A DNA stretch of 33,991 nucleotides from an uncultured Bacilli bacterium (GTDB lineage Bacteria; Bacillota_I; Bacilli_A; RF39; UBA660), in the NCBI GenBank assembly GCA_947626215.1, contig CANQRJ010000001.1, forward strand, positions 1 through 33,991, read 5' to 3'. The notes below the pieces were generated by a model, which saw only the letters and a list, made by a program, of their open reading frames with translations, made no database searches and had not been told where the DNA came from. Each line of letters opens with the position of its first letter. The stretch's first letter is position 1. Shown here in pieces: positions 12,726 to 30,374 of this stretch. A program made the position numbers and the translations under genes.

Positions 12726-13511
12726 ATGGCTATGGATTTTATAAGAGCTAAGAAAAGTTTTGGACAAAATTTTTTAAAGGATGAAAATGTTTTAAAAAAA
12801 ATTGCTACTAGTTTTAATGTTACAGAGAAGGATTTAGTCATTGAAATTGGCCCTGGTATGGGTGCTTTAACCAAATATTTAGTAAAAGCACCTAGTCATT
12901 TACTTTGTTATGAGATTGATACAAGATTTCAAGAGCTTTTAATGGGTTATCAAAATGAAAAGTGTCGGGTTATTTTTGATGATTTTTTAAATCGAAATTT
13001 AAAACATGATATAAAAGAAAATTATGAATGTATTTATGTGATTGCTAATATTCCTTATTATATTACCACTCCTATTATTGAACATATTTTGGAAAGTCAT
13101 GTAGAAATTTCTGGAATGACTTTACTTGTACAAAAGGAAGTTGCATCTCGATTTGCAGCTAAGCCAAAATCAAAAGATTATGGCTATTTTACGGTTTACC
13201 TTAATCATTTTTTTGATATTCAAGTGTTATTTGATGTACCAAATACGGCTTTTAATCCTCCTCCTAAAGTTACTAGTTCGGTGGTTTTAATGAAAAGAAA
13301 AGAAGCTCAAGAAATAGATATTTTGAAGTTTCAAAAATTTTTAAAAGATGCTTTTTCTCAAAAGAGAAAGACTTTAAAAAATAATTTAAAAGATTATGAT
13401 TGGGAAAAAATTCGTTTATTATTACAAGAACGGGGACTAAAAGAAGAAGTTCGAGCAGAGGAAATTTCTTATGAAGATTTTGTTTGGATTTTTAAATATT
13501 TAGGCTTATAA
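12726..13511 (+). CDS. rsmA: 16S rRNA (adenine1518/1519-N6)-dimethyltransferase RsmA/KsgA
   Basis: 261 aa. Motifs KKSFGQNFL, EIGPGMGALT and ANIPYYITTPI. Confidence 0.95.
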   Translation: MAMDFIRAKKSFGQNFLKDENVLKKIATSFNVTEKDLVIEIGPGMGALTKYLVKAPSHLLCYEIDTRFQELLMGYQNEKCRVIFDDFLNRNLKHDIKENYECIYVIANIPYYITTPIIEHILESHVEISGMTLLVQKEVASRFAAKPKSKDYGYFTVYLNHFFDIQVLFDVPNTAFNPPPKVTSSVVLMKRKEAQEIDILKFQKFLKDAFSQKRKTLKNNLKDYDWEKIRLLLQERGLKEEVRAEEISYEDFVWIFKYLGL

Positions 13512-13619
13512 ATTTTAAAATGTAAATTTTTTGTCAATTTTTTTTACTTGGAGTTTTCTTTTTTTTCCTTTAATGTTACAGTTATGATGTAAGTATATAG
13601 CATTAAAGGAGGAATTTAT

Positions 13620-14276
13620 ATGGCTTTTGTTTACAATCCAGAGTCTGTTAAATCTTGGTCTAACAGTCTGGTAAAAAGTATTAATGGAGAGGAAGATAGT
13701 GTTTCTAGTTGTACTAGAAAGTTTTCTGAATTAATGAGTGAACTTGTAAAACCTGCAGTATGGACTGGATCTGCGGCTTATCAAAATTATCAAAATTTTT
13801 TAGAAACTCACAATGCTTTAGTGGCTTTCTCTAATGAATTTGGTGAGGCTTTTGCAACCACTATGAATGAAGTTGCTAAAAATGTTGCAGGATTAGAAGT
13901 TGCTAATTTAGGAACGGATACTAATGTTGCTACTACTTTTGGAGAACTTAGTTTTAATCAATTATCTCAAATGGCAGCCGAAAATATAAACAAAGAATTA
14001 GTTACTTATGATTATGAAGTAATAAGTAGCATCGGAAATTCTTTAAAGCAAATTAAAGAAGTTTTGGATGGAGTAAAAGTTAATTTGCTTTCAACTATTA
14101 ATCGTTTAAATAGTGGAGAAGGAATTTGGGATGGCGATGCGGCAGAAAGCGCAAAGACAACTTTATCAAACACTGCTAATACTAATATGACTAAAATTTA
14201 TAGTAACTTAGACATTTGTATTAGTAATATTTCTGAAGCTGCTATCGCGGCACAAAATGCAGATAAAGGAATGTAA
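13620..14276 (+). CDS. Tandem (fused) double WXG100-like protein, putative T7SS substrate
   Basis: 218 aa, about twice the WXG100 length. Two W-x-G motifs are each embedded in helical context: VWTGSAA (W48, nt 13761-13769) and IWDGDAA (W170, nt 14127-14135). Strong SD AAAGGAGG. First gene of the T7SS operon. Confidence 0.7.
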   Translation: MAFVYNPESVKSWSNSLVKSINGEEDSVSSCTRKFSELMSELVKPAVWTGSAAYQNYQNFLETHNALVAFSNEFGEAFATTMNEVAKNVAGLEVANLGTDTNVATTFGELSFNQLSQMAAENINKELVTYDYEVISSIGNSLKQIKEVLDGVKVNLLSTINRLNSGEGIWDGDAAESAKTTLSNTANTNMTKIYSNLDICISNISEAAIAAQNADKGM

Positions 14277-14317
14277 AAGTTTCTTTTTTAAAGAAAAGAT
14301 TTGAGAGTATTATTCTC

Positions 14318-14346
14318 TTTCTTTTCTTTTTTTTGTGTGTTATAAT
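14318..14346 (+). promoter_or_regulatory. Candidate extended -10 promoter upstream of essC
   Basis: TGtTATAAT at 14338-14346 with a weak -35 TTTCTT 17 nt upstream. It lies in the 95-nt gap after the double-WXG gene. Confidence 0.4.
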
Positions 14347-14371
14347 TTCTATAGAATAAGAGGGAAGTGAT

Positions 14372-17300
14372 TTGATGAAGTTACTTATTTTTTTAGAATC
14401 AACTAGAACTTATCAAATATTCTCTTTACCAACTGTTATTGATGGAAATTATTGGGTTCATATTTTAGATGAAAATGGTCAAATTAAAAACATTTTAAAT
14501 GTGTATGCTTTAGATGGACGTTGGGTTTATCAAGAAAATGGTCAAATTATTCCTTTGGAAGTTTATCGATTTTATTCTATTTCTTTTAAAGAAAAAATGT
14601 TATCTATTTATACATTACCTTTATATAATTCTAATTTGGAAATTTTTTTCTTTAAACAAATGAATCAATTTTGTTTAGGAAAAAAAGATTCTGATATTCT
14701 TTATGAAGATTATAATGGAGTTCTTACTTTTACAAAGAAGAATGAAAAATGGATTATGCAGTGCGATAAACCTGAAAATGCTATTTATGTAAATCAAAAA
14801 TTAACTTCTGGAAAATTATTGGAAACCGGAGATCATTTATTTGTTCATGGATTAAATTTATATGTTTTAGGTTCATTTTTTGCAATAGATAATCCGAATC
14901 AAAAACGAAAAATTATTTCTTCTACTATTCAATTGGTTCAAGTTCCTATGTTAAAAGAATCTTTAGATGATGATTTGGATGTTCTAAGTATATATGATAA
15001 AAAAGATTATTTTTATCGTTCTCCTAGATTTCGAAATGTTATAAATGAAGTTTCTGTGGTTATAGATGCTCCACCAAATAGTTCTATTAGGGAAGAGATG
15101 CCTTTTTTACTTCAAATGGGATCTATGCTTACCATGGGTATGAGTTCTATGGTAACTTTATTTGTTTCTGTAAGTGGAATTGTTAGTGGTGAAAAAACGA
15201 TTCAAAATACTTGGCCTAGTTTAGTTATAGGTGTTTCTATGATGGTAGGTATGTTATGCATTCCATTGTTTACGAAACGTTATCAGAAAAAACAATCTTT
15301 AAAAAATGAAAAAATTCGACAAGAAAAATATTTAGAATATTTAGCATTGAAAAAGAAAGAAATTTATCAAGTAATTGAAGATCAACAACAAGCTTTTAAT
15401 GCGAATAGTGTATCATTAGAACAATGTGAAGACATTATATTACATCATAGAAGAAATTTATGGGAAAGAAAGATTGAACATGATGATTTTTTAAGTGCTC
15501 ATATTGGAATTGGTGAAATACCTGCCAAAATTAAAATTCAGTTTCCAGAGGAACATTTTTCTTTAGATAATGATAATTTAAAAGCAGAAGTTCAAAAAAT
15601 GGCAAAAGAACCAAGAACTCTTAAAAATGTTCCAATTAATGTTTCATTTGTTCAAAAAAATATATGTGCTATTTTAGGAAACTTTGAATTAATTCCTTCT
15701 TTTTTGAATACCATTTTATTGCAATTTATTGCTTTTCAATCTTATGAAGATGTGAAATTTGTAATTTTTACTACTAAAGATTCTAAAGAAAAATGGGAAA
15801 GTTTTAAAAAAATTCCTTATTTATGGAATAATGAGAAGACTTTTCGATATTATGGAGAAACAAAAGAAGATATTTTTTCAATCTGTACTTTATTAAATGA
15901 AGAATTTCAAAATCGTGCGATGAATGAAGATACAAAATCTACGGATAAAGATTATAAAAATTTTTTACCTTATTATGTCATTATTACTGATAATTTTGAA
16001 GAAATAAGAGATTTTGATTTTATTAAAAATGTTTTAAAGTCGAAAGTAAATTATGGATTTAGTTTTCTTATTATTAATGAGCGACTAATGGGATTACCTA
16101 ATGAATGTAATTCTTTTATTAATGTAGATGCAAATCAATCAGGTATGATTGAAAATGAGTTATCATCAGATCGCCAACAAGTTTTTCAAGCAGAGTTTTT
16201 AAATAAATCCTTAGATCCATTGTTTCAAGAAATTTGTAATATTCCTATTGAGTTTACGAAATCAAAAGGGAACATGCCCGAAAGTATTAGTTTTTTGGAA
16301 TTATATAATGTTGGAAAAGTAGAACAGTTAAATGCTTTGAATCGATGGAAAACAAATCATTCTTATGAAACATTAAAAGCTCCTGTTGGAGTAGATCAAA
16401 ATGGGGGACTTTTCTTTTTGGATTTACATGAAAAGGCTCATGGGCCACATGGTCTTATAGCAGGGATGACAGGTTCTGGTAAATCTGAATTTATTATTAC
16501 CTATATTTTATCTATGGCACTTAATTATCATCCATATGATGTTTCTTTTGTACTTATTGATTATAAGGGTGGTGGACTTGCAGGTGCTTTTGAAAATAAA
16601 GATTTAGGAATTAAACTTCCTCATTTAGCAGGGACTATTACCAATTTGGATACGGTAGAAATTGGTCGTAGTTTAGCTTCTATTGAAAGTGAATTAAAAA
16701 GAAGACAAAAGTTATTTAATGAAGCAAGAGAACAAACGAATGAAAGCACGATTAATATTTATAAATATCAAAAATTATATCATCAAGGAATTGTAAAAAC
16801 TCCTGTACCACATTTGTTTATTATTAGTGATGAATTTGCAGAGTTAAAAAGTCAACAACCAGAATTTATGGCTCAGTTAATTTCTACGGCTAGAATAGGT
16901 CGTTCTTTAGGAGTTCATTTAATTTTAGCAACTCAAAAACCAAGTGGAGTAGTCGATGCTCAGATATGGAGTAATTCTAAATTTCGTGTTTGTTTAAAAG
17001 TTCAAGATCGTAGTGACAGTATGGATATGATTAAGGTTCCTGATGCGGCGGCTTTATCTACCGTTGGAAGGTTTTATTTACAAGTTGGATATAATGAATT
17101 TTTTGCAATGGGACAATCTGCTTGGGCAGGAGCTCCATATTATGAAATGGATGAAAGAAAAACAAAGATTGATTCATCGATTCATTTTGTAGATAATGTG
17201 GGGAAAGTAATTAAGTCTGTAGAACAGGAAAATCAAAAAATGAAATCATCTTTTAAAGGTGAGGAATTACCAGCTATTTTAAAATATATTTCTGATTTAG

Positions 17301-18931
17301 CTAAAAAAGAGCAGATTCATGTGGATCCTTTATGGCTTTCTAGTATTCCTGAATTTATTACGATTGGGACTTTGGAGAAAAAATATAGTTATAAAAGTAT
17401 TCCTTTTGTTTTGAATGAAGTAATTGGTGAATATGATTCTCCTTCTACACAAAGTCAACATTTACTTACTCTTCCTATTTCAAAAGATGGTAATGTTTTA
17501 CTTTATGGTGCAAGTGGAAGTGGAAAAGAAAACTTTCTTACAACTTTTATACTTTCAACTATTTTACATCATACTCCAGAAGAAGTTCAGTTTTATTTAT
17601 TAGATTTTGGAGCAGAAACCCTTACAATGTTTCAGGATGCTCCTCATGTTGGAGATGTCGTTTTTTCTTCTGATAATGAAAAAGTAACCAATTTATTTAA
17701 AATGATTAATGAAATGGTACAAACTCGTAAATCAAAATTTATGAATTTTGGTGGTACTTTTGAATCTTATAATGCTAAAAATGATAAAAAAGAAGCTAAT
17801 GTAATTATCGTTTTAAATAATTATGAGAATTTTAAAGAATTATATGAAAATTTTGAAGAAGATTTGATTTCTCTTACTAGAGAAGCTACAAAATATGGTA
17901 TTTATTTTATTTTAAGTGTTTTGAGTTCTAATAGTATTCGTATTAAATTGTTTCAAAACTTTAAATCGATTTATTCTTTACAATTAAACAATGAAGATGA
18001 ATATACAAATATTTTAGGAAATGTACATAAAACTTTTCCTTCTAAGAAATTTGGTAGGGGCATTACTCGCATACAAGGAGAAATTTATGAATTTCAAACG
18101 GCTTATGTATGTGAAAAAGAACATATTGTAGACACTGTCCGAGATTTTTGTTTAAAACTTAAAAAATATTATTCTAGTTACGCTAAAAAAATACCAGTGT
18201 TGCCTCAAAAAGTTACTTATTCTGCTCTTTCACCAATACAATATTCTTTGGAAGATTTTGTAGTGGGTGTAGAAAAAGATTCTTTAGAATTATCTAGATG
18301 TAATTTTAAATCTAAAACAGTTTCTTTTGTTACGGCTTTAGAATTAGATAATTTAGAAAATTTTACTTACGGATTAATTGATTTCTTTCAACCTTTATCT
18401 AATCATTTACTATATGTCTTAGATATGGGTTCTTCTCTTGATCCTAGAAAAGTTCATTCTAAATATTACTATTCTAAAAAAGTTTCTGATGTATATCAAA
18501 GTGTCTGCGATTATATTGATAAACTAGCTCTTGATTTTGCAAATAATCAAAAAGATGAACAACGATTAGAAAAGTATACCCATTTAACTCTTATTATTTA
18601 TGGTATTGAAGACTTTTTCAAACTTATAAAAGAAAATATGGAAAAATTTGAAAAGTTGTTACAAAATGGTCATGATCTAGAAAAATTAAATATTATTTTA
18701 GTCGATGCAAGTTACTCCATTAAGAAATATGAAATGGATTCATGGTATCGTAATTTTGTGATGAGCAATCATGGTATTTGGGTAGGAAGTGGTATTACGG
18801 AGCAATTTGTTTTAAAACTTGCTAAAACTCCAAAATATTGTTATGAAGAAATTTCAAATCAATATGGTTATGTTGTCAAAAATGGAGTGCCTGTTCTTGT
18901 AAAATTATTAGAAGGTGATAAGAGTGAATAA
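14372..18931 (+). CDS. essC: Type VII secretion FtsK/SpoIIIE-family ATPase EssC/YukB
   Basis: 1519 aa. FHA-like N-terminus, two TM helices (about aa 245-305), D1 Walker A GMTGSGKSE (nt 16463-16486) with Walker B LFIISDEFAEL, D2 Walker A GASGSGKE (nt 17507-17530). No GxxGxGK[ST] is recognisable in the last ~300 aa (degenerate D3). ATG 14375 is an equally likely start (TTG 14372 in the track). Confidence 0.93.
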   Translation: MMKLLIFLESTRTYQIFSLPTVIDGNYWVHILDENGQIKNILNVYALDGRWVYQENGQIIPLEVYRFYSISFKEKMLSIYTLPLYNSNLEIFFFKQMNQFCLGKKDSDILYEDYNGVLTFTKKNEKWIMQCDKPENAIYVNQKLTSGKLLETGDHLFVHGLNLYVLGSFFAIDNPNQKRKIISSTIQLVQVPMLKESLDDDLDVLSIYDKKDYFYRSPRFRNVINEVSVVIDAPPNSSIREEMPFLLQMGSMLTMGMSSMVTLFVSVSGIVSGEKTIQNTWPSLVIGVSMMVGMLCIPLFTKRYQKKQSLKNEKIRQEKYLEYLALKKKEIYQVIEDQQQAFNANSVSLEQCEDIILHHRRNLWERKIEHDDFLSAHIGIGEIPAKIKIQFPEEHFSLDNDNLKAEVQKMAKEPRTLKNVPINVSFVQKNICAILGNFELIPSFLNTILLQFIAFQSYEDVKFVIFTTKDSKEKWESFKKIPYLWNNEKTFRYYGETKEDIFSICTLLNEEFQNRAMNEDTKSTDKDYKNFLPYYVIITDNFEEIRDFDFIKNVLKSKVNYGFSFLIINERLMGLPNECNSFINVDANQSGMIENELSSDRQQVFQAEFLNKSLDPLFQEICNIPIEFTKSKGNMPESISFLELYNVGKVEQLNALNRWKTNHSYETLKAPVGVDQNGGLFFLDLHEKAHGPHGLIAGMTGSGKSEFIITYILSMALNYHPYDVSFVLIDYKGGGLAGAFENKDLGIKLPHLAGTITNLDTVEIGRSLASIESELKRRQKLFNEAREQTNESTINIYKYQKLYHQGIVKTPVPHLFIISDEFAELKSQQPEFMAQLISTARIGRSLGVHLILATQKPSGVVDAQIWSNSKFRVCLKVQDRSDSMDMIKVPDAAALSTVGRFYLQVGYNEFFAMGQSAWAGAPYYEMDERKTKIDSSIHFVDNVGKVIKSVEQENQKMKSSFKGEELPAILKYISDLAKKEQIHVDPLWLSSIPEFITIGTLEKKYSYKSIPFVLNEVIGEYDSPSTQSQHLLTLPISKDGNVLLYGASGSGKENFLTTFILSTILHHTPEEVQFYLLDFGAETLTMFQDAPHVGDVVFSSDNEKVTNLFKMINEMVQTRKSKFMNFGGTFESYNAKNDKKEANVIIVLNNYENFKELYENFEEDLISLTREATKYGIYFILSVLSSNSIRIKLFQNFKSIYSLQLNNEDEYTNILGNVHKTFPSKKFGRGITRIQGEIYEFQTAYVCEKEHIVDTVRDFCLKLKKYYSSYAKKIPVLPQKVTYSALSPIQYSLEDFVVGVEKDSLELSRCNFKSKTVSFVTALELDNLENFTYGLIDFFQPLSNHLLYVLDMGSSLDPRKVHSKYYYSKKVSDVYQSVCDYIDKLALDFANNQKDEQRLEKYTHLTLIIYGIEDFFKLIKENMEKFEKLLQNGHDLEKLNIILVDASYSIKKYEMDSWYRNFVMSNHGIWVGSGITEQFVLKLAKTPKYCYEEISNQYGYVVKNGVPVLVKLLEGDKSE

Positions 18932-19175
18932 GGTTTTAGTTTCTATTTATGTGATTAAATTAGATCAGGAGTATGAAATATTTTTGCCACCTAATAAAAA
19001 AATTGTTGATGTTATTTGTATGATTGCAAAATCAGTTCATGAAATAAGTAATGAAGTGTTTCCTTTAAATTATCAAAATTTGTTATATGATTGTGAACAA
19101 AATATTTTTTATGATCCTCAAAAATCGGTGAAAGAGGCCGGCTTAAAAAATGGAAAACGATTGATTTTCTTTTAG
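18924..19175 (+). CDS. esaB: YukD/EsaB-like ubiquitin-fold T7SS accessory protein
   Basis: About 83 aa, overlapping the essC stop. SD AGGTGA lies 5 nt before GTG 18924 (the track starts at GTG 18915). Small beta-grasp-like sequence ending GLKNGKRLIFF, in the conserved position after essC. Confidence 0.6.
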   Translation: MNKVLVSIYVIKLDQEYEIFLPPNKKIVDVICMIAKSVHEISNEVFPLNYQNLLYDCEQNIFYDPQKSVKEAGLKNGKRLIFF

Positions 19176-19208
19176 TTTCATGTTATCTTTATAAGGGAGA
19201 ATCGAAAT

Positions 19209-19511
19209 ATGGACATTAAAATAGATGAAGTAGAAATGAAAAATTTAAGTAGTAATATTCATAGACAGGCCGAAAGTATTCGAAAACTTTGTCAGTCTTT
19301 AAATTCTGTTACTACTTCTCTTACACCTTATTGGAAAGGCGAGACTTTTGTTCAATTTTCTTCTAAAGTAATTGGTGATAGTGATTCTTATCAAGCGAAT
19401 CTTACGAAATTTTCTAAAGAGTTGGACGATATTGCGACGTATATGGAACAATCTATTGCTCTTTATGAAAAAATGGATTCTACGTATCATTCTAAAAAGA
19501 TAGATTTGTAG
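19209..19511 (+). CDS. WXG100 family protein (EsxA-like)
   Basis: 100 aa, helical, with central YWKGETFVQF (W-x-G at aa 42-44) as in EsxA NWEGQAFSRF. Confidence 0.8.
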   Translation: MDIKIDEVEMKNLSSNIHRQAESIRKLCQSLNSVTTSLTPYWKGETFVQFSSKVIGDSDSYQANLTKFSKELDDIATYMEQSIALYEKMDSTYHSKKIDL

Positions 19512-20221: not shown

Positions 20222-23200
20222 ATGAAAATTATTCATTATAATTATTTAAATAATTCTTATAAAAATTTTGTAAATGCCTCTAGAAGTTTTGAAACAGATA
20301 AGTATTCTAAGTTTTCCAATAGTTATGTTACTACGTGTTCTAATGTCTATGTTTCTAGGATGAAGTCTGTTTTATCTAATAAGTATAAAGAAATGCTTGA
20401 AGCTTATCAAAAAATTGATGAGTGGTGGCTTCATTATCTTAATGATGTTCGTGCGGTTGAAAATGCAATTTCTCAAAGTTTCTATGGCTTTGAAGAATCT
20501 TCTCTTGCTTCTTTTGTTGGTGGTAAACTTTTGAATCCTACTGTTACAAAAACATCATTATCTGGCAAATTAACGCTTGCTACAGTGAATTCTGAACTCT
20601 ATTCTAACGCTTTTATGAGTATGGGTTCTGCTAGTCCTTTTTTAGCACAGTCCATGTTTGAACAGAAAGTTTTGTTTTCTAAACAAGAAAAAGAAATGAT
20701 TTTAAATAAATTTTTTAATGGATCTAATTTAACGGCAAGTGAAGTCAATAAAATTCAAAGTACTCTTACTCATATGTATGATGAAGACATGCAAAAAGCA
20801 AATCAAAAGTGTGAAGCATCTCAAACAAAATATAATGATATGGCTAAGGTATTTTCTAAATTAACGGGTTCATCTTTTGACATAGATAAAATGAAATCTT
20901 TAAAAAGTGAAGCTCAACAAGAGGCTCTTCGTATGGCAAAAGAGTATAAAAGTAAATCTTTTAGGTGGAATGATTTTGATTTTGATGAAAAAGGAATTCA
21001 TTTAACTAGAGATCAATTTGAAAAAATGTCTGTGACAGAGTTAAGTGAAGTTCTTTTGAAAAATGATATGACTATCGGAACTCAATATAAACGTTTCAAT
21101 TCGATTTTAAGTGGTACACAGTATGGCAGTTTAGAAAATTTTTTGAAAAAAATGTCTACTCTTCAAGATAATTATTCTAAAGATTTAGAGGCAAAAAATA
21201 AAATTGAGGCTCAAGTGAAAGGATTGTCCTATGCTTTAATGAGCCAGACAGAAGATTATAAGAATTTTAAACCTAAAAGTGTTTCTAAAGATGGTATAAC
21301 AGATGTCACGACTGTTATTCAAAATGATCAAAATATTGCTACTCAACAAACGATTGTAGATTATTCTAAGTATGTGAAAACTTATGGGGAAGTGGATCCT
21401 CTTAGTTTTACCTCTCTAGCAATGCAAATGTATGGAGACAGTATTGAAGTACAAGGGGTAACCAATCCTGAATTATTAAAAGAACTTGCTAAAGTTCAAG
21501 GAATTCAAAGTTTAAGTGATATGGGTAAATATTATCAATTTGCTTATCAAAATTTTGGCTCAGAAAAAGCAAATAAATATCTTACAGACTATGAAAGTGA
21601 AATTCATCAATACTGTGGAGAAGTCAATGCAAATGAGTTTTTAAATCATTTATCTAGTTTAAATGAAGTAAATAGAGTTGAGGCCGTGACCAATCATTTA
21701 AAGGTTACTGGAAAAGGTTTATCTGAAGGTATGATGGGATTTTTTTCAAATTTGGGATATCTTTTAGAAAGTCCTTTAGAGGAAAATCGTACTGTGAGTG
21801 CAAAAGAATATGAAAATATGTATATCGTTCAGGCATTGTCTAGTAAAGAATCAAAAATGAAAAATGGTCTTCTTACGAAAAATTTAAAGGGAGATGTTTT
21901 TAGCACATCTGATATTATTGATTATACAAAAGATTATGGAGCTTTAACGGAACATAATTACCAAATTAGTGAGTCGATTGGAAATATGTTACCTAGCATT
22001 GCCGTTTCGGCTATTAATCCTTTTGTAGGATCTCTTGCTTTGGGAGCGAGCGCGGCAGGAGGTTCTTATCACAGTGCAATGACGGAAGGGTATTCTGTTC
22101 AAAAGTCTATGTTATATGGGGTTGCATCCGGTGCAAGTGAAGTCTTAATGGAGAAGGCATTAGGAGGTTTACCATTATTAAGTGATACGAAAGTAGTTAG
22201 TTTAAAAACTATGGCTCAAGCTATGGGTAAAGAATTTAATGAAGAATTTATTCAAACTTATGTCGATGCAGGTGCAAGTTCTCTTATTTTACAAAAAGAT
22301 TTTGATTTAGCAAGTACTTCAAAAGAAGCTTTACAATCTGGGATTTATGGGGGTATTACAGGTGGAATCATGAATCTTCCTAGCTTAGCTATTAATAGTA
22401 GTAGTATTAAAATGATTGATAATCAGATAAAAGCTGGTAAAGTTTCTCAAGAAGAAATTGTTCAAAGTTTTCATGAATTAATTCCAGAAACACAACAAAT
22501 GAATTATGATGAAATTTTGCAAGAATATACAACTACGGCAAAAGATGTTACTTTAAGTCTTGTACAAGCTAACGGTAAAACAGTAGCCTCTTCTGGAGTA
22601 AGTACTTTATTAGGAAATATGCTTAAAAATTCTCAAAATGCTTTGCATGTAAAAATGAATCAAATAAGGGATAAAAATATTGTTTCACTTAATTTAAATC
22701 CTATTCAAAATTTAGAACCTGCTTTTGTTGGAGTTCAAAATATTACTGACGTGGAGCAAGTTATTGTAAATAATTCTGATGTGAATAAATTATTAGGGAA
22801 GACTGCTTTGTCTTCTTTACCAAAGGCAGTTGTTGGTATCGCGACTTCATTTGCATCTAGGCCATTTTTCTTTCGATATACGCCAGTTACAACGTCTAAT
22901 AGTTTTTCTCAGAAAATATTAAATGAAGGATTATATCATTTTACAAGTGAAAAAAGTATTTCTAAAATTCAAGAATCTGGATATATAAAAGCCTCTGATT
23001 ATTTTACTTCGTATGGAAATAAAAAAAGTTTTTTCTTTGCAGGTATTCCTGATATAGAAGATGTTGCTATGAATACAAGTAGTTTGGCTGATAAACGAGT
23101 AGCTGTCAAATTGAAAATAGATCCAAGTGAATTACAACAGTTTCGTTATAGAGATTTAGTAGATAAGGCTGTTTCTCATGATGGAAATTATGTATTTAAT

Positions 23201-26200
23201 CCAGATCATTTTTCAATTGCTTACTTAGGGCTTGCTGAAGAAAATGGAAAAGTAGTTTATAAAGAAATATCAAAATCAGAGTATGATCAATATCAGTCTA
23301 ATGTATCTAAGGCAAAAAAAGAGTCTTTAGTGAAGAAAGCGGAGACGTTTATTATAGGGGTTGCTTCGGACTGGACATATACAAAAAATAGATTTCAAAG
23401 AATAGCAAGTGCCTTTAAAAATACAAATATTGATAAAACGGGAGCAATCTATGCTAATAGTACATCAATGCTTTTAGAGAATATTCAACAATTTAATTTA
23501 GAAGATACCTTAGATTTAGAAGAAGAAGGTCTCCCAATTAGAGATTCAGATCATTTTACTAATTTAGAAGATACCCTAGATTTAGAAGAAGAAGGCCTTC
23601 CAATTAGAGATTCAGATCAAATTACAAATTTAGAAGATACCCTAGATTTGGAAGAAGAAGGTCTTCCAATTAGAGATTTAGACCAATTTACAAATTTAGA
23701 AGATACCCTAGATTTGGAAGAAGAAGGTCTTCCAATTAGAGATTCAGATCAATTTACAAATTTAGAAGATACTCTAGATTTAGAAGAAGAAGGCCTTCCA
23801 ATTAGAGATCCAGATCGAATTACAAACTTAGAAGATACTTTAGATATGGAAGAAGAAGGTCTTCCAATTAGAGATTCAGATCAAATTACAAACTTAGAAG
23901 ATACTTTAGATATGGAAGAAGAAGGTCTTCCAATTAGAGATTCAGATCAAATTACAAATTCAGAGTCGTTAATAACTAATAGAGAAAAAGCTATATTTAA
24001 AAATGATGAGTTGTTATCTACTTCGAAGTTTTTAGAATTATCTCTGGAAAATAAAAAAGAATATATTCAACGTGCAAGTATTGGGCAAATTAATGAATTA
24101 ATATCGTCTGATATTTCTTATGATGATGAAACAAGTCAATTATTTTATACAAAAATATTTCATAATCAGGAAGAGATTTTTTATGATAAAATTTTTGGAA
24201 AAGAAAAATATTCTAATATTGAAAAATATGTTTGTAAACATCCAGAATTATATTCTGATTTACATGATGAATCTTTAATAACATTAATCGATCATAATTC
24301 TAAAAATACAGATTTACTAAATGAATTATATAGACGTATTGATGAAGGTTCTCCTATTTTTATGAAAAATTATGAAGTAGAGGAATTTTATGGAAGGAAA
24401 AGAAGAATTATTGGTAGTGTATTTAATGCTATGTCACAAGAATATCAAAAAAAGGTAAGAGATTCTATCATTGAATTATCAAAAAAGATTTCTCCTGATT
24501 TAAAGAAATTAAGTTTAAGTGGTTATGATATGTTTGATCAAGCTCAATTCTTTTATGCTCTTCAAAACAATACAATAGATGAAGTTGGTATTCAATTTTT
24601 AAATAAATTGTGTTCTGAAAATAAATATAAATTTAAAGGAATGAATTATTCCTTGCTTAATTCTTCTTACTTAAATGATTTAGGAGAAGATTTTGTAAAA
24701 TCTATTATTAATAAAGCTACTTTAGCTAATCAAATTGTTTATTTGCATAATTACAATCCTAGTTTATATCAAGCTTTTGTTAAGTTTGTTCAAAATAGCT
24801 ATTCTGATAATTCATTATATACATTTTATCCGAAAGTTACAAACATGCTATCTTTTTTTATTAAAAATGAACATGCTTTAGTAAATTTAGATTCAAAATT
24901 ATTATTAAGTGATTCTTTTACAAATTATGTATTATATCTTGCATCAAATGCTTATTCAAATTCAATAAAGTTATCTGCATTTTCATCTGATTATAATACA
25001 AAATTTTATGAATTATGTGATGATAAATTTTTAAATTTATATCTAAATTCGTTTACAGATGTCAACGATTTGAAAAAGATTTTTTATAATAAATATTTTT
25101 CAAGTGATGTTTTAAATATTAAATCTTTTATTACTAAATATGAAACTAGTCTAGATTCTATTTCAAAATATGATGAAGAAAGTGTTGCTATTATAAAATA
25201 TTTAAAATTTATTGAATCTATAAATGATAAAGAAACATTAAAAAATTTATATGACGAGTGTAATATTCGAATTTCTTCAGAAGAACTTTTATATATTGAT
25301 GATGCTTTAAGGAAAGCTTACGTAAAAACCTATATTGAAAGTTTAGAAAAAACTAATCATACTATAGAGTCTTTAATAAAATCTGGTCAAAATACTTCTA
25401 CAATTAATTTTGAGGGTAAAAATGTTACGGTTGTTGATGTTGGTAATCAGTTTTCTTTTATAGTTCGTAGTAGTGATTCTGGACTTGTTACGAATGGATT
25501 AGAACATGTATCTTCTTATAAAGATGCTTATTTTCAAGCGGATGATCCAACTAATCATATATTGGCGGCTACCTATATAAATGAAAGAAATATTGGAAGT
25601 TGCCCGGTTAATAATGAAGGCGTTTTATATGGCTTTACTAAGTTGAATGACTCTCAAATAGTTATGATGGCACCTAATGATATTAATTCTAATATTAATA
25701 GTGTAGGATATTCTTCTGGGGCAAATCAACGTTTTGTTACGGCTGATGATATGTCTAGTTATACAAGAAGAATTTATAATGAAGTAGATTTAGAAAAAAA
25801 TGGAACTTTACCGGATTATGTTATTATATATAATGATTCTACTGATACACAGATTCAAAGTGCTTATAAAGCGGCTATAGAATGGAATATTCCAGTAATA
25901 CGCATTGATAAAGTTGATGTGGCTACTCATCAGTCCAATTTTATTAATTCTCTTATGGAAAATTTTAAGGAAACAAAGGATGTATCTTATTTAGATCAAG
26001 CTTTGGACTTATATGAATCTAATTGTAGTGGATATAAATTTAATTCTTTTGTAAAAGAAGGAAATGAAGATCGAACAAGTGGAATTAATAATCAAACTAT
26101 TTATGATTTAGGACTATTTAATTCTGTTACTATTGAGGATGATATTTTGGATTATATTCATGAATTAACGACGATGGATTCTAATCAAAAAGAAGTGGAT

Positions 26201-26338
26201 GAATTAATAAAAGTACTTGATAATGTTAAATATAAATATGATTTAGCAAACGAATCAAATAACAATTTATTGGCTAATACTAAATCGAATTTAGATTTAG
26301 AGTCTTTAGAAGCCATATTAGAAGAAATTAGGAGGTAA
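20222..26338 (+). CDS. Giant (2038 aa) multi-domain putative T7SS substrate / polymorphic-toxin-like protein with non-canonical LXG-like N-terminus
   Basis: Uninterrupted 6.1-kb ORF with SD AGGAGG and no signal peptide. It has a helical N-terminus and lies in the operon behind essC, WXG and adaptor-like genes. Internal Gly/Ala/Ser-rich segment at aa 588-726, LYHFTSE..I.ESG signature at aa 904-920, 7x22-aa acidic repeats at aa 1092-1245, and unassigned C-terminal domains. Confidence 0.6.
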   Translation: MKIIHYNYLNNSYKNFVNASRSFETDKYSKFSNSYVTTCSNVYVSRMKSVLSNKYKEMLEAYQKIDEWWLHYLNDVRAVENAISQSFYGFEESSLASFVGGKLLNPTVTKTSLSGKLTLATVNSELYSNAFMSMGSASPFLAQSMFEQKVLFSKQEKEMILNKFFNGSNLTASEVNKIQSTLTHMYDEDMQKANQKCEASQTKYNDMAKVFSKLTGSSFDIDKMKSLKSEAQQEALRMAKEYKSKSFRWNDFDFDEKGIHLTRDQFEKMSVTELSEVLLKNDMTIGTQYKRFNSILSGTQYGSLENFLKKMSTLQDNYSKDLEAKNKIEAQVKGLSYALMSQTEDYKNFKPKSVSKDGITDVTTVIQNDQNIATQQTIVDYSKYVKTYGEVDPLSFTSLAMQMYGDSIEVQGVTNPELLKELAKVQGIQSLSDMGKYYQFAYQNFGSEKANKYLTDYESEIHQYCGEVNANEFLNHLSSLNEVNRVEAVTNHLKVTGKGLSEGMMGFFSNLGYLLESPLEENRTVSAKEYENMYIVQALSSKESKMKNGLLTKNLKGDVFSTSDIIDYTKDYGALTEHNYQISESIGNMLPSIAVSAINPFVGSLALGASAAGGSYHSAMTEGYSVQKSMLYGVASGASEVLMEKALGGLPLLSDTKVVSLKTMAQAMGKEFNEEFIQTYVDAGASSLILQKDFDLASTSKEALQSGIYGGITGGIMNLPSLAINSSSIKMIDNQIKAGKVSQEEIVQSFHELIPETQQMNYDEILQEYTTTAKDVTLSLVQANGKTVASSGVSTLLGNMLKNSQNALHVKMNQIRDKNIVSLNLNPIQNLEPAFVGVQNITDVEQVIVNNSDVNKLLGKTALSSLPKAVVGIATSFASRPFFFRYTPVTTSNSFSQKILNEGLYHFTSEKSISKIQESGYIKASDYFTSYGNKKSFFFAGIPDIEDVAMNTSSLADKRVAVKLKIDPSELQQFRYRDLVDKAVSHDGNYVFNPDHFSIAYLGLAEENGKVVYKEISKSEYDQYQSNVSKAKKESLVKKAETFIIGVASDWTYTKNRFQRIASAFKNTNIDKTGAIYANSTSMLLENIQQFNLEDTLDLEEEGLPIRDSDHFTNLEDTLDLEEEGLPIRDSDQITNLEDTLDLEEEGLPIRDLDQFTNLEDTLDLEEEGLPIRDSDQFTNLEDTLDLEEEGLPIRDPDRITNLEDTLDMEEEGLPIRDSDQITNLEDTLDMEEEGLPIRDSDQITNSESLITNREKAIFKNDELLSTSKFLELSLENKKEYIQRASIGQINELISSDISYDDETSQLFYTKIFHNQEEIFYDKIFGKEKYSNIEKYVCKHPELYSDLHDESLITLIDHNSKNTDLLNELYRRIDEGSPIFMKNYEVEEFYGRKRRIIGSVFNAMSQEYQKKVRDSIIELSKKISPDLKKLSLSGYDMFDQAQFFYALQNNTIDEVGIQFLNKLCSENKYKFKGMNYSLLNSSYLNDLGEDFVKSIINKATLANQIVYLHNYNPSLYQAFVKFVQNSYSDNSLYTFYPKVTNMLSFFIKNEHALVNLDSKLLLSDSFTNYVLYLASNAYSNSIKLSAFSSDYNTKFYELCDDKFLNLYLNSFTDVNDLKKIFYNKYFSSDVLNIKSFITKYETSLDSISKYDEESVAIIKYLKFIESINDKETLKNLYDECNIRISSEELLYIDDALRKAYVKTYIESLEKTNHTIESLIKSGQNTSTINFEGKNVTVVDVGNQFSFIVRSSDSGLVTNGLEHVSSYKDAYFQADDPTNHILAATYINERNIGSCPVNNEGVLYGFTKLNDSQIVMMAPNDINSNINSVGYSSGANQRFVTADDMSSYTRRIYNEVDLEKNGTLPDYVIIYNDSTDTQIQSAYKAAIEWNIPVIRIDKVDVATHQSNFINSLMENFKETKDVSYLDQALDLYESNCSGYKFNSFVKEGNEDRTSGINNQTIYDLGLFNSVTIEDDILDYIHELTTMDSNQKEVDELIKVLDNVKYKYDLANESNNNLLANTKSNLDLESLEAILEEIRR
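23495..23956 (+). repeat. Seven tandem in-frame 66-bp repeats encoding NLEDTLD[LM]EEEGLPIRDSDQ[IF]T
   Basis: Read directly from the sequence. Units start at 23495 with period 66. Units 6 and 7 are identical and the others differ at a few mostly synonymous positions. Confidence 0.98.
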
Positions 26339-27039: not shown

Positions 27040-27774
27040 TTATTTTAATTTTTTTTCAGGTTTTATATCTTCTGGTTTAAATCCACAAGCAATGAATAGA
27101 TTTAATATTCGACTAATTTGAAATATATCTCCATGACCTTCAAAGATAGTTCTTGGTATAACCATAATTTTTTTATCTTCTAAAATAAATATGACTGTGA
27201 TTTGATCATATTCTTTTCTTGGTAGTTTTAATACTTCTATATAGTTTTCCCAAAAATAAGAGTTACTCTTTTTTAATTTTATAATTAGGTATTGTGCAAA
27301 CCACATGCCATCTTGCCTTAAATCTTTTAAAAACTCTAATTGCATATATAAATACGAATAAAGAAATTCGTCATATTCTGTAAATTCATAAAAAGAATAT
27401 ACTTCTCTAAATCTATTAGGAGTACGTCTGCTAAAATAGGTTTGTGTTCTCGCAAAGATAACTTTATTTGGTATATTAGGAAGACTTATTATATCTAAGT
27501 TTAAATTAGCAATTTTTTCATATAATGAATCATTAATTAAAAATTTTTGAGCTTGTGGAAAATAATACATTTTAGATTTTCCAATGTTTTTTTCAAAAGG
27601 TATGTTATATAACATTATTCCTGGGATAATCATAAGTAGTAAACCGAGTAATCTAATAGTAAAGATGTATGGATCTAAGTTTGATTGAATGTATGCAAGC
27701 ATTACAAAAAGAATCATCAGTAAAAACGTAATAATGAATAAAATTTTACAAATATTATATCTTTTCTTTTTCAC
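27040..27774 (-). CDS. Hypothetical membrane protein (2 N-terminal TM helices plus ~170-aa soluble domain)
   Basis: 244 aa. Hydrophobic segments ILFIITFLLMILFVMLAYI and LLGLLLMIIPGIMLY. Convergent with the DUF4176 gene, with 9 nt between the stops. No family recognised. Confidence 0.5.
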   Translation of the reverse strand: MKKKRYNICKILFIITFLLMILFVMLAYIQSNLDPYIFTIRLLGLLLMIIPGIMLYNIPFEKNIGKSKMYYFPQAQKFLINDSLYEKIANLNLDIISLPNIPNKVIFARTQTYFSRRTPNRFREVYSFYEFTEYDEFLYSYLYMQLEFLKDLRQDGMWFAQYLIIKLKKSNSYFWENYIEVLKLPRKEYDQITVIFILEDKKIMVIPRTIFEGHGDIFQISRILNLFIACGFKPEDIKPEKKLK

Positions 27775-27882
27775 TCAAACGTATTCTCCTAATTTTTTTT
27801 AATATTTTTATGTTGTTATATATCAAGTATAACACCGTGTTAGTTTTGCTTTCAAGTATAGATTTCTTTTTAAAAGATCTTT

Positions 27883-27900
27883 AAGTGTAACTATTCAGAC
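27883..27900 (+). repeat. Copy 1 of the recurring AAGT(G)TAACTATTC(AGAC) motif
   Basis: AAGTGTAACTATTCAGAC. The 14-mer GTAACTATTCAGAC is identical to 33917-33930, and the 13-mer AAGTGTAACTATT is the exact reverse complement of 29298-29310. Confidence 0.85.
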
Positions 27901-27914
27901 TAAGACATATTAAG

Positions 27915-27974
27915 ATTAATTTCCTTTTTTTCCTAACTCCACCTTGCTACTGCAATAACTTTGCAATTCGCCAT
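27915..27974 (-). pseudogene. Possible relic of a ParA/Soj-type P-loop ATPase N-terminus
   Basis: The minus strand reads MANCKVIAVA, then after a 1-nt frame slip GGVRKK (compare KVIAVAnqKGGVGKT). It is truncated at the repeated GAATAGTTAC motif. Only about 20 codons remain, so the call is weak. Confidence 0.25.
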
Positions 27975-28033
27975 GTCTTTTCTTCTTTTTTTTCTAGATA
28001 ACTATACTTAAATAAAATATAGCTATGTATGGC

Positions 28034-28062
28034 AAAAAAAAGAACTGAATTTTTTTCAGTTC
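28034..28062 (-). terminator. Rho-independent terminator (minus strand)
   Basis: 8-bp stem GAACTGAA/TTCAGTTC with a 5-nt loop. A run of A8 on the plus strand (28034-28041) gives U8 after the hairpin on the minus-strand transcript. Confidence 0.55.
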
Positions 28063-28271
28063 GTTGTTATGTTTCATTAGTTAAAATTATCAATTTTAGT
28101 TACTTAAGGTGCGTCACCTACTTCTTTTTTATCATAAACTTTTGAGAATTTTTGGCGATTTTTATCATTTTTTGAGTTTTTAAGAAAAACAAAATATTAC
28201 GTTTTTCCCCTATTTTATGGGCTTTTTTAGGTTGTTACTTAAGAATACATCAGTATTTACTGATATTTACT

Positions 28272-28283
28272 AAGTAACTATTC
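28272..28283 (+). repeat. Copy 2 of the motif (AAGTAACTATTC)
   Basis: It lies 3 nt beyond the stop of the recombinase relic. Confidence 0.7.
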
Positions 28284-28286
28284 GAT

Positions 28287-28680
28287 TTAATATAACCTAA
28301 TTTTTTTAGGTTCTCCTAACCCAAACTTAAAGGACAACTTTAATGTATGATCTTTATAAACAATAATTTTATCTATTAGTTCTCGAATAACATTGTTCAC
28401 ACATTCATATTATTTATAAATGCCATTATATTTTTCAAGCAAATATATTTTTATACTTTCCATATTTTTTGATTCTTCAAGTTTTTTTAATAATATTTCC
28501 GATTTTTCTTTTAACTCAGTTTCTTTTTCTTTCATTAACATAAATTCATCTAAACTAATTTCTTCAAATGTTTTTTTAAATATAGATTTCTAATATTAGT
28601 ATTATGCAATTTAATATCTTCTTTTAAATTTGTAATTTTCACATTATTCTTTCATTATTTAATATATCTTTTGTTGCAAT
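28287..28680 (-). pseudogene. Degraded C-terminal fragment of a (large) serine recombinase
   Basis: Minus-strand translation gives IATKDILNNE, then a coiled-coil KTFEEISLDEFMLMKEKETELKEKSEILLKKLEE...YK*YECVNNVIRELIDKIIVYKDHTLKLSFKFGLGE. This resembles recombinase C-terminal tails. It is interrupted by stops and frameshifts, and no catalytic N-terminal domain is present. Confidence 0.45.
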
Positions 28681-28696
28681 GGAAACAATATCATAT

Positions 28697-28915
28697 TTAT
28701 CGACATATATCCGTTTTTGTGGTTTTGCCATCAGATCCATGTTCTACTATTGATCCCTTTCCAGTATCTGTATTAATGTTAATATGAATAGTTGAATGAT
28801 CTTTTTCAGATGGATTTTTATCATATACTGAATATGATGCATTACTTTCGTTCCCTGTCATTTTTGAATAATGACCATCATCGTGTTTGTAACCATACTT
28901 ATCTTTTTCACTCAT
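28697..28915 (-). CDS. Hypothetical small hydrophilic protein (72 aa, His/Asp/Lys/Gly/Thr-rich)
   Basis: ORF only. Its ATG directly abuts the TAA of the upstream ORF in the same frame. No family recognised. Confidence 0.35.
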   Translation of the reverse strand: MSEKDKYGYKHDDGHYSKMTGNESNASYSVYDKNPSEKDHSTIHININTDTGKGSIVEHGSDGKTTKTDICR

Positions 28916-29236
28916 TTATAATTTTCCCTCTTTGACTTTTTGCTCTAACATAAATTCAAACGCATAAAATTCATTACTAATGTGATCAGTTAGTTCAGAA
29001 AATGTATTATCTATATTTAGTTGATAAATAATTTTTGATATCATTTTAACTTTTTCCAAATCTATTTTTTCCTCAAGTTTCATTTTTAGTTCAACAATAC
29101 AATTTTCTAAAAAAACGATATCAACATGCTCTAAATTATATTTATTTGTTTTTTTTATTAAAGCAATATCATTAATTATATTTTCTAAATGCTCTAACAC
29201 ATCATTACCTTCTTTCTTAAAGAATATTATATACAT
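28916..29236 (-). CDS. Hypothetical helical protein (106 aa)
   Basis: ORF only. All-helical and acidic. Immediately followed by the 72-aa ORF (TAA-ATG). Confidence 0.35.
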   Translation of the reverse strand: MYIIFFKKEGNDVLEHLENIINDIALIKKTNKYNLEHVDIVFLENCIVELKMKLEEKIDLEKVKMISKIIYQLNIDNTFSELTDHISNEFYAFEFMLEQKVKEGKL

Positions 29237-29454: not shown

Positions 29455-30132
29455 TTATTTTTTATTATTTAAGTCAATACCATCAATGCTAGTTTTATAA
29501 ATCCATTCTTTTAAATCAGAATTATTTCCTGTTTCATAAAACTTAATTAATTTTTCAAAAAAAGTTGGTTGATTTTCTTGAGAAATTGTTATGATTCCAC
29601 AACCATGATCAATCATTATTTTATTTGCAAATAGCATAGCAACTCTTTTGTTGCCATCAATAAACATTTGTTTTCTCATAATTCATAGCATGATCTCAAT
29701 AGCTACTTCAGTTTTAGTTTTTTCCTGTTGATTTAATAATTCTTGTAGTTCTTCTTTAATTTGACTTTCAATTGGAAACATTGGTTTCCATGAAGTTCCA
29801 CCAATATTTACAGGTGTGCTTCTTAATTTTCCTAAATTTTGTTCTAACACTAACTTATCACAAGTTAATTTGTGTAAATGACATAATAGCTTAAAATCAT
29901 AATCAATGCTTTCATTTTCTAATATAAATTGCCAAGAGTATTTTAAATTGTTGATGGCAATTATTTTATCAACAGTTAGTCCATTTACAATACCACCATC
30001 ATATATAGCTTGTATTTCTGAGCATGTAACATCAATACCTTCTAAATTAGCACTTTTCCAAATATAATCTACAATATTTCTTTTTGCTATAAATATGTTT
30101 TGTTCTCTTGTTAGATTAAATTTATTTTTCAT
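29455..30132 (-). pseudogene. Fic/Doc-family gene interrupted by an in-frame TGA, with a degenerate active-site motif
   Basis: Two same-frame ORFs separated by TGA (29683-29685): ...TEVAIEIML*IMRKQMFIDGNKRVAMLFANKIMIDHG. QMFIDGNKR aligns to the Doc-type HxFxD[GA]NKR motif with His replaced by Gln. The likely start is ATG 30132 (MKNKFNL) behind AAGGA. Confidence 0.6.
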
Positions 30133-30374
30133 AATAATTTTTCCTTTTACTATATGATAAGATAATAACAAATTGTTCTATTATGTCTTTCATATGAATT
30201 AAAATTTCTTATAATATAAATATAACACTTTTTAAATCATTTTGTAACTTTTTGGTTTTACTGAAAAATGTTGACATATTTTTTAGTATTTTAATAAATA
30301 ATGTAGATTTTGTCTACACTTTTTAGTTAGTTTTAAATTTTTATTTTTTTCATATACTTTTTTAGGTGAAGCTT

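Follow-up and report, generated by a model that had tools for sequence, protein, structure and literature searches.

The rules by which type VII secretion systems (T7SS) recognize their substrates have been drawn almost wholly from LXG toxins. In this group, of which TelA, TelB and TelC of Streptococcus intermedius, with their Lap targeting factors and Ltc/DUF4176 chaperones, are described examples, the toxin gene lies behind essC and genes for small WXG-like and helical proteins, an N-terminal helical domain is followed by a disordered region, a DUF4176 gene is found nearby, and a constant N-terminal part is joined to an exchangeable C-terminus with a small candidate immunity gene downstream. 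Another group of giant proteins with several effector-type domains in series, the polyvalent proteins, shares few domains with polymorphic toxins, and T7SS are not mentioned in its description (Iyer et al. 2017, PMC5512222). The present analysis concerns a stretch of 33,991 nt from an uncultured Bacilli bacterium (contig CANQRJ010000001.1; in the following, the window), and in particular an open reading frame (ORF) of 2038 amino acids (aa) on its forward strand (20222-26338), which starts with ATG and contains no internal stop. At a G+C content of about 28%, so long an open frame goes far beyond what chance would produce; the ORF is real. On balance, its product, here called the big protein, is probably a giant polymorphic effector of a T7SS in an uncultured, low-G+C gut Bacilli lineage.

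The features listed above for LXG toxins recur at this locus, and the presumed kind, a T7SS polymorphic toxin, is already known. The differences lie in the parts. The big protein fails LXG membership and has no L-x-G turn, its N-terminal domain forming a separate family; it is three to four times longer than LXG toxins, with a conserved trunk of ~750 aa that bears an enzyme-like domain of its own and is related to polyvalent proteins; the DUF4176 protein of the window is of the small class; and the product of the candidate immunity gene has only 34-52 aa.

The main evidence for a T7SS substrate is that the linkage to T7SS genes repeats across divergent sequences. In the window, genes for a tandem-WXG100 protein, EssC, a YukD-like protein, a WXG100 protein and two small helical proteins of 98 and 130 aa precede the big ORF on one strand, separated by gaps of 17-96 nt or overlapping (Table 1). 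At least eight other loci contain divergent relatives of the first ~1080 residues, with essC, YukD-like and DUF4176 genes beside them. Trunk homologs with identities of 28-57% adjoin homologs of essC, the YukD-like gene, the 98-aa ORF and the DUF4176 gene (L001/L002, L003, L004-L006, L008 and L010-L013; neighbours in the loci of the trunk scan and of the relative P0004 were identified by local phmmer), and some of those with 28-37% identity lie in very long ORFs (at least 4477 aa in L010 and 2788 aa in L011). The scan with the trunk alignment, which covered 185,579 species genomes, returned six loci, all in metagenome-assembled genomes of uncultured Bacilli or 'Tenericutes' from rabbit and human gut. 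The linkage also extends to proteins that carry the C-terminal cassette of the big protein on other N-terminal regions, which adjoin essC or YukD-like genes in L014, L016, L018 and L023 and, in L026, lie behind a WXG100 gene. From this recurrence we infer a strong link of the 2038-aa protein to type VII secretion. A preliminary description of the window had placed the gene behind essC, two WXG100-like genes and a helical adaptor-like gene and had proposed a T7SS substrate on these grounds; the context was confirmed by library matches (TIGR03928 and PF06013) and by the ORF with a WSG motif, and the neighbourhood conserved across divergent loci argues for the proposal itself.

The small neighbours differ in how widely they recur. 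The 218-aa protein that opens the island (13620-14276) consists of two WXG100-like halves with the motifs VWTG and IWDG, and a homolog occupies the same position in L001; comparable WXG100 proteins of 211-219 aa are found in L001, L011 and L012. The 86-aa YukD-like ORF had no match in the Pfam and NCBIfam libraries, and its homologs adjoin essC or family members in L001, L004-L006, L011, L013, L016, L018 and L023. Homologs of the 98-aa ORF lie immediately upstream of trunk homologs in L001, L008, L010, L011 and L013, and its product is a candidate targeting partner with a Lap-like role; the 130-aa helical protein, a candidate second targeting partner, is kept only in the close relatives L001 and L008 and matched no family in Pfam or NCBIfam. 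No Lap family model of these two libraries matched either of the two proteins.

In a local iterative search, about 15 family members that differ elsewhere were found to begin with a domain homologous to the N-terminal ~230 residues. In an AlphaFold2 model of the N-terminal 1095 aa (alignment of 21 sequences, mean predicted local distance difference test score (pLDDT) 65.7), helices at residues 2-21 and 36-86 form a helix-turn-helix (aa 2-86), followed by a disordered segment (aa 85-147, pLDDT < 50) and then by long helices. The hairpin carries the conserved signature Y72-x-x-D75-[VI]-x-x-[LIV]-E80, and its turn has a conserved F..s.Y..F..SY...CS where an LXG domain would have L-x-G. No LXG model (PF04740) matched the big protein in Pfam or NCBIfam at E ≤ 0.1, none of 20 cassette-bearing relatives at E ≤ 0.001, and none of 26 N-terminal and trunk fragments at E ≤ 0.1 among the families listed (25 of 38). 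The preliminary description had noted a non-canonical N-terminus without LXG signature, and this holds for a recurrent domain. When compared by hhalign with local WXG100 alignments, the domain aligned in register, with weak scores (E 0.006 and 0.002; probability 6-13%). Another T7SS trafficking domain is LDxD (Zhang et al. 2012, PMC3482391); the conserved motif of the big protein is Y-x-x-D-[VI] and not L-D-x-D, and no model identifiable as LDxD was among the matches from the libraries searched. The big protein has neither a hydrophobic, Sec-type N-terminal signal peptide nor an LPXTG-type motif, two features named beforehand as speaking against a T7SS substrate. By analogy, the domain is treated here as working like an LXG domain outside the LXG family: the hairpin would take the LXG role, pair with the upstream WXG-like and helical proteins and thus present a composite signal to EssC.

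Exchange of the C-terminus is the second line of evidence. A word-indexed search with the big protein gave few relatives, and those with alignments A2 and A4 gave three proteins each, low-complexity words having filled the candidate cap. The relatives P0002 and P0003 (1980 aa) are 57% identical to the big protein over aa 1-1080 only and unrelated beyond; the homology stops at aa ~1075-1084, where the acidic repeat starts, and the repeat marks the junction of trunk and cassette. This stretch of seven 22-aa units, described before and recovered by Tandem Repeats Finder (TRF), is strongly acidic (net charge -30 across aa 1101-1200), and the G+C content, 0.30-0.33 in the trunk, is down to 0.226 in the cassette. 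Because the homology to P0003 ends at the repeat and the G+C content falls, the locus behaves like a polymorphic toxin locus, in which relatives share a constant N-terminal part and vary at the C-terminus. In the island of P0002/P0003, the genes from the tandem-WXG gene up to the giant one are in the same order as in the window; after them come an ADP_ribosyl_GH gene, a 73-aa ORF and a DUF4176 gene. Past aa ~1085, a small alarmone synthetase (PDB 8vx3, E 3.1e-12) is matched by one module of P0003, and the domain at its C-terminus gave matches to C3-like and Certhrax ADP-ribosyltransferases (E 2.4e-6). The ADP-ribosylhydrolase family is a listed immunity type for ADP-ribosyltransferase toxins of the R-S-E type (Zhang et al. 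2012, PMC3482391), and P0003 is, judged by these matches, likely a multi-toxin with one recognizable immunity gene. Its locus is that of L001 and L002 (10001-17090). In the locus of P0004 (L004-L006), a gene for a 250-aa protein kinase and a DUF4176 gene precede the trunk homolog, whose C-terminus resembles, by eye only, a transglutaminase or papain-like Cys-His-Asp domain.

The trunk itself is modular. Searches of Pfam, NCBIfam and PDB sequences with the whole protein gave a single weak match, Tox-ART-HYD1 (PF15633; aa 904-944, E 0.055, 14.5 bits), the sole Pfam match of the big protein, and Foldseek with the whole 1095-aa model returned helical-repeat noise alone (exportins and transporters). 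PF15633 is matched by P0002, P0003 and P0004 with E 0.005-0.024 and by eight of 26 scanned fragments from relatives (best E 7e-6), and residues H906, K935, F939, R977 and D981 show no variation among 13 sequences. They fit the H,[RK],[FY],[DE] pattern of the family with H906, K935 or R977, F939 or Y931, and D981, and the predicted alpha/beta domain agrees as well; a profile of the module had no match in PDB. Tox-ART-HYD1 has been listed among the T7SS-delivered toxins (Zhang et al. 2012, PMC3482391), but the domain of the big protein is internal, in the conserved trunk and not at the variable C-terminal tip, and its score is below the gathering cutoff; a gene of the Imm-My6CBD type was not seen near the big gene. 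The internal module appears to be a divergent, Tox-ART-HYD1-like domain and a putative ADP-ribosyltransferase-like enzyme, which would be the first effector of the protein.

Upstream of it lies a Gly/Ala/Ser-rich module with a hydrophobic peak at aa 589-613 and a stretch rich in S, A, L and G (aa 601-700). It is conserved in P0004, in P0006 and in P0007, a protein bearing LPD3. It was also found in 12 viral contigs of IMG/VR (E down to 7e-21, identity 26-41%), mostly within ORFs of 2100-2630 aa, and two of four scanned viral ORFs with the module bear polyvalent domains in Pfam: LPD38 (4e-30), LPD3 and NTP_transf_2 in L029, and ART-PolyVal (8e-24) in L034. These viral loci contain no T7SS genes and have G+C contents of 28-59%. 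The big protein thus has, in its aa 575-725 module, a domain in common with polyvalent proteins; like them it is giant with effector-type domains in series, an H-Y-D-type ADP-ribosyltransferase-like domain follows the Gly-rich module, and a relative has a module of the RelA/SpoT type, a type found in polyvalent proteins too. It differs in that its gene is in a T7SS locus and not in a phage or conjugation locus, and no LPD model matches it. As polyvalent proteins are thought to enter target cells together with DNA, and as T7SS effectors and polyvalent proteins both must enter another cell, the amphipathic module may aid passage through the envelope or the membrane.

The cassette of ~790 aa that follows the repeat has a wide distribution of its own. 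A profile search run exhaustively against 1.84 billion representatives retrieved it in 485 representative clusters at E ≤ 1e-3, 167 of them at E ≤ 1e-30. Three settings occur: giant proteins of 1000-4358 aa that end in the cassette, stand-alone proteins of ~800 aa, and ~1340-aa proteins that contain only its last ~400-450 aa, with an HD domain following. It sits on many N-terminal regions other than that of the big protein, and its best-conserved unit is the last ~400 aa, here called the end domain. In an alignment of 36 end-domain sequences with 21-49% identity (A4), S1750, D1820, E1854 and P1864 never vary and H1779 hardly does. AlphaFold2 predicted the end domain (aa 1640-2038) with a pLDDT of 90.9 and a predicted template modelling (TM) score of 0.90 as an alpha/beta core between helical arms, the strands lying between aa 1725 and 1895 and the helices on either side.

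Comparison of the end domain with known families gave no assignment. Neither 36 scanned members nor 20 scanned cassette relatives matched a Pfam family in this domain; no profile match was obtained among PDB sequences, no match in PHROGs and no relative in 2.9 million viral contigs, and hhalign detected no relation to the HYD1-like module. The sole recurring lead from Foldseek is CteC of Chromobacterium violaceum (PDB 8ux2 and 8htf), which accounts for five of the ten best PDB matches (E 0.09-1.4, probability up to 0.87, TM scores 0.37-0.40; alignments of ~200-235 columns with root-mean-square deviations of 6.5-8.3 Å). CteC is a ubiquitin-specific mono-ADP-ribosyltransferase that uses R65, S97, D134 and E220, of which Ser, Asp and Glu are essential. 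Ser, Asp and Glu follow in the same chain order in the end domain; however, no Arg equivalent to R65 is conserved there, sequence similarity is absent and the structural match is not significant, so that the domain is not placed among the CteC-like or R-S-E enzymes. Judged by the model, ADP-ribosyltransferase-like chemistry is a lead rather than a finding, and a rather improbable one. A serine-hydrolase triad and motifs of the PD-(D/E)xK nuclease and RelA/SpoT-like types were also considered by eye and rejected, as spacing or secondary structure did not fit; no structure of these three types was among the Foldseek matches of the end domain.

The HD domain is fused to the end domain in at least 20 representative clusters, is encoded by a separate gene after the cassette in L023 (14064-14915) and is an internal module of the giant protein P0030; no HD homolog is present in the window. 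The association hints at nucleotide or phosphoester chemistry and does not permit a call between immunity and a second effector, although a dedicated immunity enzyme was downgraded in view of P0030. The end domain would be the main toxin of the big protein, at the tip of a transferable cassette and with its Ser/Asp/Glu set and near-invariant His; it is enzyme-like, with a possibly NAD- or nucleotide-directed activity.

Compared with the preliminary description, all of the segments of the big protein were recovered. The Gly/Ala/Ser-rich segment (aa 588-726) is present and has turned out to be common to phage polyvalent proteins, and the candidate enzymatic module (aa ~900-1020) coincides with the Tox-ART-HYD1 match. 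The helical region, the alpha/beta module and the helical tail are likewise all present in the AlphaFold2 model; they are, however, not separate units but parts of one ~790-aa cassette. The alpha/beta module had been called unassignable, and it has indeed no Pfam, PDB-sequence or significant structural match. Furthermore, at least two candidate effector modules had been proposed; this agrees with the HYD1-like module and a well-folding end domain with invariant polar residues, and in a relative, toxin-type domains sit on the same trunk. What the description did not contain is the conserved partner ORF directly downstream of the big gene.

This 52-aa, lysine-rich ORF is called as a gene in the public annotation. 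Similar small ORFs with the start MNKKE.L..K...L lie directly after the cassette in eight loci including the window; they encode lysine-rich products of 34-52 aa, and the end domains beside them in the loci of the metagenome scan are only 34-37% identical to that of the window. Stand-alone cassette proteins have no such lysine-rich ORF downstream. Their partner is an ORF of 144-170 aa (L022 3600-4112 and L025 4704-5138; 40% identical, E 1e-28), which suggests a separate two-gene module outside T7SS loci. Because each subfamily has its own tightly coupled and conserved downstream partner, a pairing of toxin and immunity is proposed, in which the product of the 52-aa ORF, a candidate immunity factor or partner peptide, would neutralize the end domain or associate with it.

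The next gene encodes the DUF4176 protein, assigned to the DUF4176/Ltc proteins by its PF13780 match and its adjacency to a putative T7SS toxin gene. Its homologs adjoin trunk homologs in L001, L004-L006, L008, L011, L012 and L013. DUF4176 proteins were recently shown to act as chaperones by binding to T7SS toxins where these are disordered (PMC12478183), and the disordered segment of the big protein together with the recurrent DUF4176 neighbour fits this picture by analogy; the chaperone would hold aa 85-147 and perhaps a second stretch, aa 770-881.

Several points weigh against a T7SS effector with these parts. Neither an LXG nor a WXG100 model matches the N-terminal domain, and its comparison with the local WXG100 profiles is only weakly suggestive. 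The HYD1 score of the big protein is under the Pfam cutoff (14.5 versus 25 bits), and the module is internal and has no recognizable cognate immunity gene. For the end domain, no significant structural relative was found in PDB or BFVD by Foldseek (none at E ≤ 0.001). A lysine-rich peptide of 34-52 aa is unusually small for an immunity protein, and with such small ORFs low-complexity similarity in AT-rich DNA can mislead. By its size the DUF4176 protein belongs to the 'small' class, whose role is less well settled than in the case of the large one (PMC12478183). In addition, no homolog of EssA, EssB or EsaA was found in the window or in related loci. Of the full T7SSb set, the locus has EssC and WXG100 and, by recurrence, a YukD-like protein; the apparatus may be incomplete, encoded elsewhere or of a variant type, either a known one (cf. 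PMC11217815) or one not described so far. The reduced cluster of tandem-WXG100, EssC, YukD-like and WXG100 genes (13620-19511) is also present in L011, L012, L013, L016 and L023.

The missing apparatus genes would be explained if the big protein were itself a structural or accessory component, an envelope conduit or anchor that replaces EsaA, EssB and EssA in a simplified T7SS. T7SS variants with large accessory proteins have been described (PMC11217815), the trunk is the conserved part and always next to essC, and the Gly-rich segment contains a hydrophobic peak. However, the protein has no signal peptide and one marginal hydrophobic stretch only, C-termini are swapped, also for toxin-type domains with an ADP-ribosylhydrolase gene downstream, the cassette occurs outside T7SS loci, and the Gly-rich module occurs in phage proteins without T7SS genes nearby; a structural role is thus very unlikely. 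The non-T7SS occurrences of the cassette bear on a different explanation, namely that the big protein is a secreted or cell-associated multi-enzyme protein and not an antibacterial toxin, its end domain being a nucleotide or metabolite enzyme and the small ORF unrelated or regulatory. The ~800-aa stand-alone homologs lie among ordinary chromosomal genes (beside DHH, SSB, lspA or others) with no T7SS genes nearby, as do the ~1340-aa homologs (L007 and L024; type of P0005 and P0014), in which the end domain is fused to an HD phosphohydrolase, and Foldseek recovered no known toxin fold from PDB and BFVD. Because of these homologs, the end domain is not exclusively a secreted toxin. Nevertheless, the T7SS-linked copies occupy the exact place of polymorphic toxin domains, tightly coupled downstream partners specific to each subfamily are the usual signature of toxin and immunity, and sister proteins carry ADP-ribosyltransferase and alarmone-synthetase modules of toxin type, so that a multi-enzyme protein is regarded as unlikely.

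The kinship with phage proteins can be taken further, to a polyvalent protein that belongs to an integrated phage or a conjugative element, is delivered together with DNA and stands next to T7SS genes by accident. The Gly-rich module shared with LPD38-, LPD3- and ART-PolyVal-bearing phage proteins, the giant multi-domain build with an H-Y-D-type domain after this module, as in L034, and remnants of mobile DNA downstream (a split Fic gene) are in line with it. Yet no phage structural genes and no conjugation genes were found in the window, the linkage to essC, YukD-like and DUF4176 genes repeats in many divergent loci, the viral loci lack T7SS genes, and the end domain has no viral relative; such an accident is highly improbable. 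In the most far-reaching form of the T7SS effector reading, which is tentative and rather doubtful, the big protein would be the founding member of 'polyvalent effectors' with non-LXG targeting, several effectors, a new toxin fold, micro-protein immunity and a pared-down T7SS without EssA, EssB and EsaA, and would bridge polyvalent proteins and polymorphic toxins.

Three of the parts, the N-terminal domain, the Gly-rich module and the end domain, are absent from curated libraries. A recurrent non-LXG N-terminal domain with its own partners would give a second, independent system for learning what EssC reads, and the Gly-rich module is a concrete candidate for a device with which proteins pass an envelope or membrane. 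Through the end domain, which is widespread in gut metagenomes of the Bacilli type, the search for a new toxin or enzyme activity becomes tractable, and its micro-ORF partner, if it truly confers immunity, would be among the smallest immunity factors known.

Table 1. Features of the locus, and small ORFs after the cassette in other loci (window positions unless a locus is named)
Feature	Position	Strand	Basis or remark
Tandem-WXG100 protein, 218 aa	13620..14276	+	TIGR03930 E 2.1e-8 on aa 128-216
essC, type VII secretion ATPase	14372..18931	+	TIGR03928 988.7 bits (cutoff 778.4); FtsK_SpoIIIE 8.4e-51
YukD/EsaB-like small protein, 86 aa	18915..19175	+	assigned by position and recurrence only
WXG100 protein	19209..19511	+	PF06013 1e-7; TIGR03930 2.4e-9
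WXG-like helical protein, 98 aa	19520..19816	+	WSG motif; ESAT6_2 weak, E 0.057 (sole family match)
Helical protein, 130 aa	19813..20205	+	start overlaps stop of preceding gene
N-terminal helical domain, aa 1-230	20222..20911	+	recurrence in relatives; AlphaFold2
Alpha+beta domain, unassigned function, aa 350-480	21269..21661	+	pLDDT 88-95; conserved in P0002-P0004 and P0006
Gly/Ala/Ser-rich amphipathic helical module, aa 575-725	21944..22396	+	29 invariant columns in alignment A9
Divergent Tox-ART-HYD1-like alpha/beta domain, aa 885-1040	22874..23341	+	PF15633 E 0.055; pLDDT 91-96
Acidic repeat, 7 copies of 22 aa (NLEDTLDLEEEGLPIRDSDQIT)	23495..23964	+	TRF: period 66 nt, 7.1 copies, 93% matches
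Helical first half of cassette, aa 1246-1639	23957..25138	+	present with end domain in most of the best 150 representative matches
End domain, ~400 aa, aa 1640-2038	25139..26335	+	alpha/beta core, helical flanks; candidate toxin
Lysine-rich ORF, 52 aa	26341..26499	+	AGGAGG box 5 nt before its ATG, which lies 3 nt past the stop of the big gene
DUF4176 protein, 103 aa	26719..27030	+	PF13780 1.5e-27, 95.9 bits (cutoff 25)
Small ORF after cassette, 51 aa	L014		followed by essC
Small ORF after cassette, 52 aa	L015 and L017
Small ORF after cassette, 34 aa	L018
Small ORF after cassette, 39 aa	L019
Small ORF after cassette, 49 aa	L023
Small ORF after cassette, 49 aa	L026

Housekeeping genes flank the island: dnaX ... 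mfd, spoVT, metG, tatD and ksgA lie upstream of it, whereas yabG, veg, spoVG and yabP are on the downstream side. In the window it lies between ksgA and yabG (12726-13620 and 30171-30366), versus between metG and tatD in the relatives L001 and L011; because the insertion site differs in relatives with a 72% identical TatD, the island has moved. In L001, a DDE transposase is inserted ahead of essC. A terminator scan downstream of the big gene found none. Further downstream, on the reverse strand, a Fic/DOC-type gene (29455-30171; motif FIDGNKR) is split into ORFs of 162 and 74 aa, the short piece matching Pfam Fic with E 0.0087, and is probably a pseudogene. Between it and the DUF4176 gene lies another reverse-strand block (27040-29236), which encodes a 244-aa protein with two N-terminal hydrophobic helices, ORFs of 72 and 106 aa and further short ORFs, and which is possibly decayed mobile DNA or a set of unrelated immunity genes. 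A short ORF at 28287-28400 resembles, by eye, the C-terminus of a recombinase, and the GC skew flips within this block.

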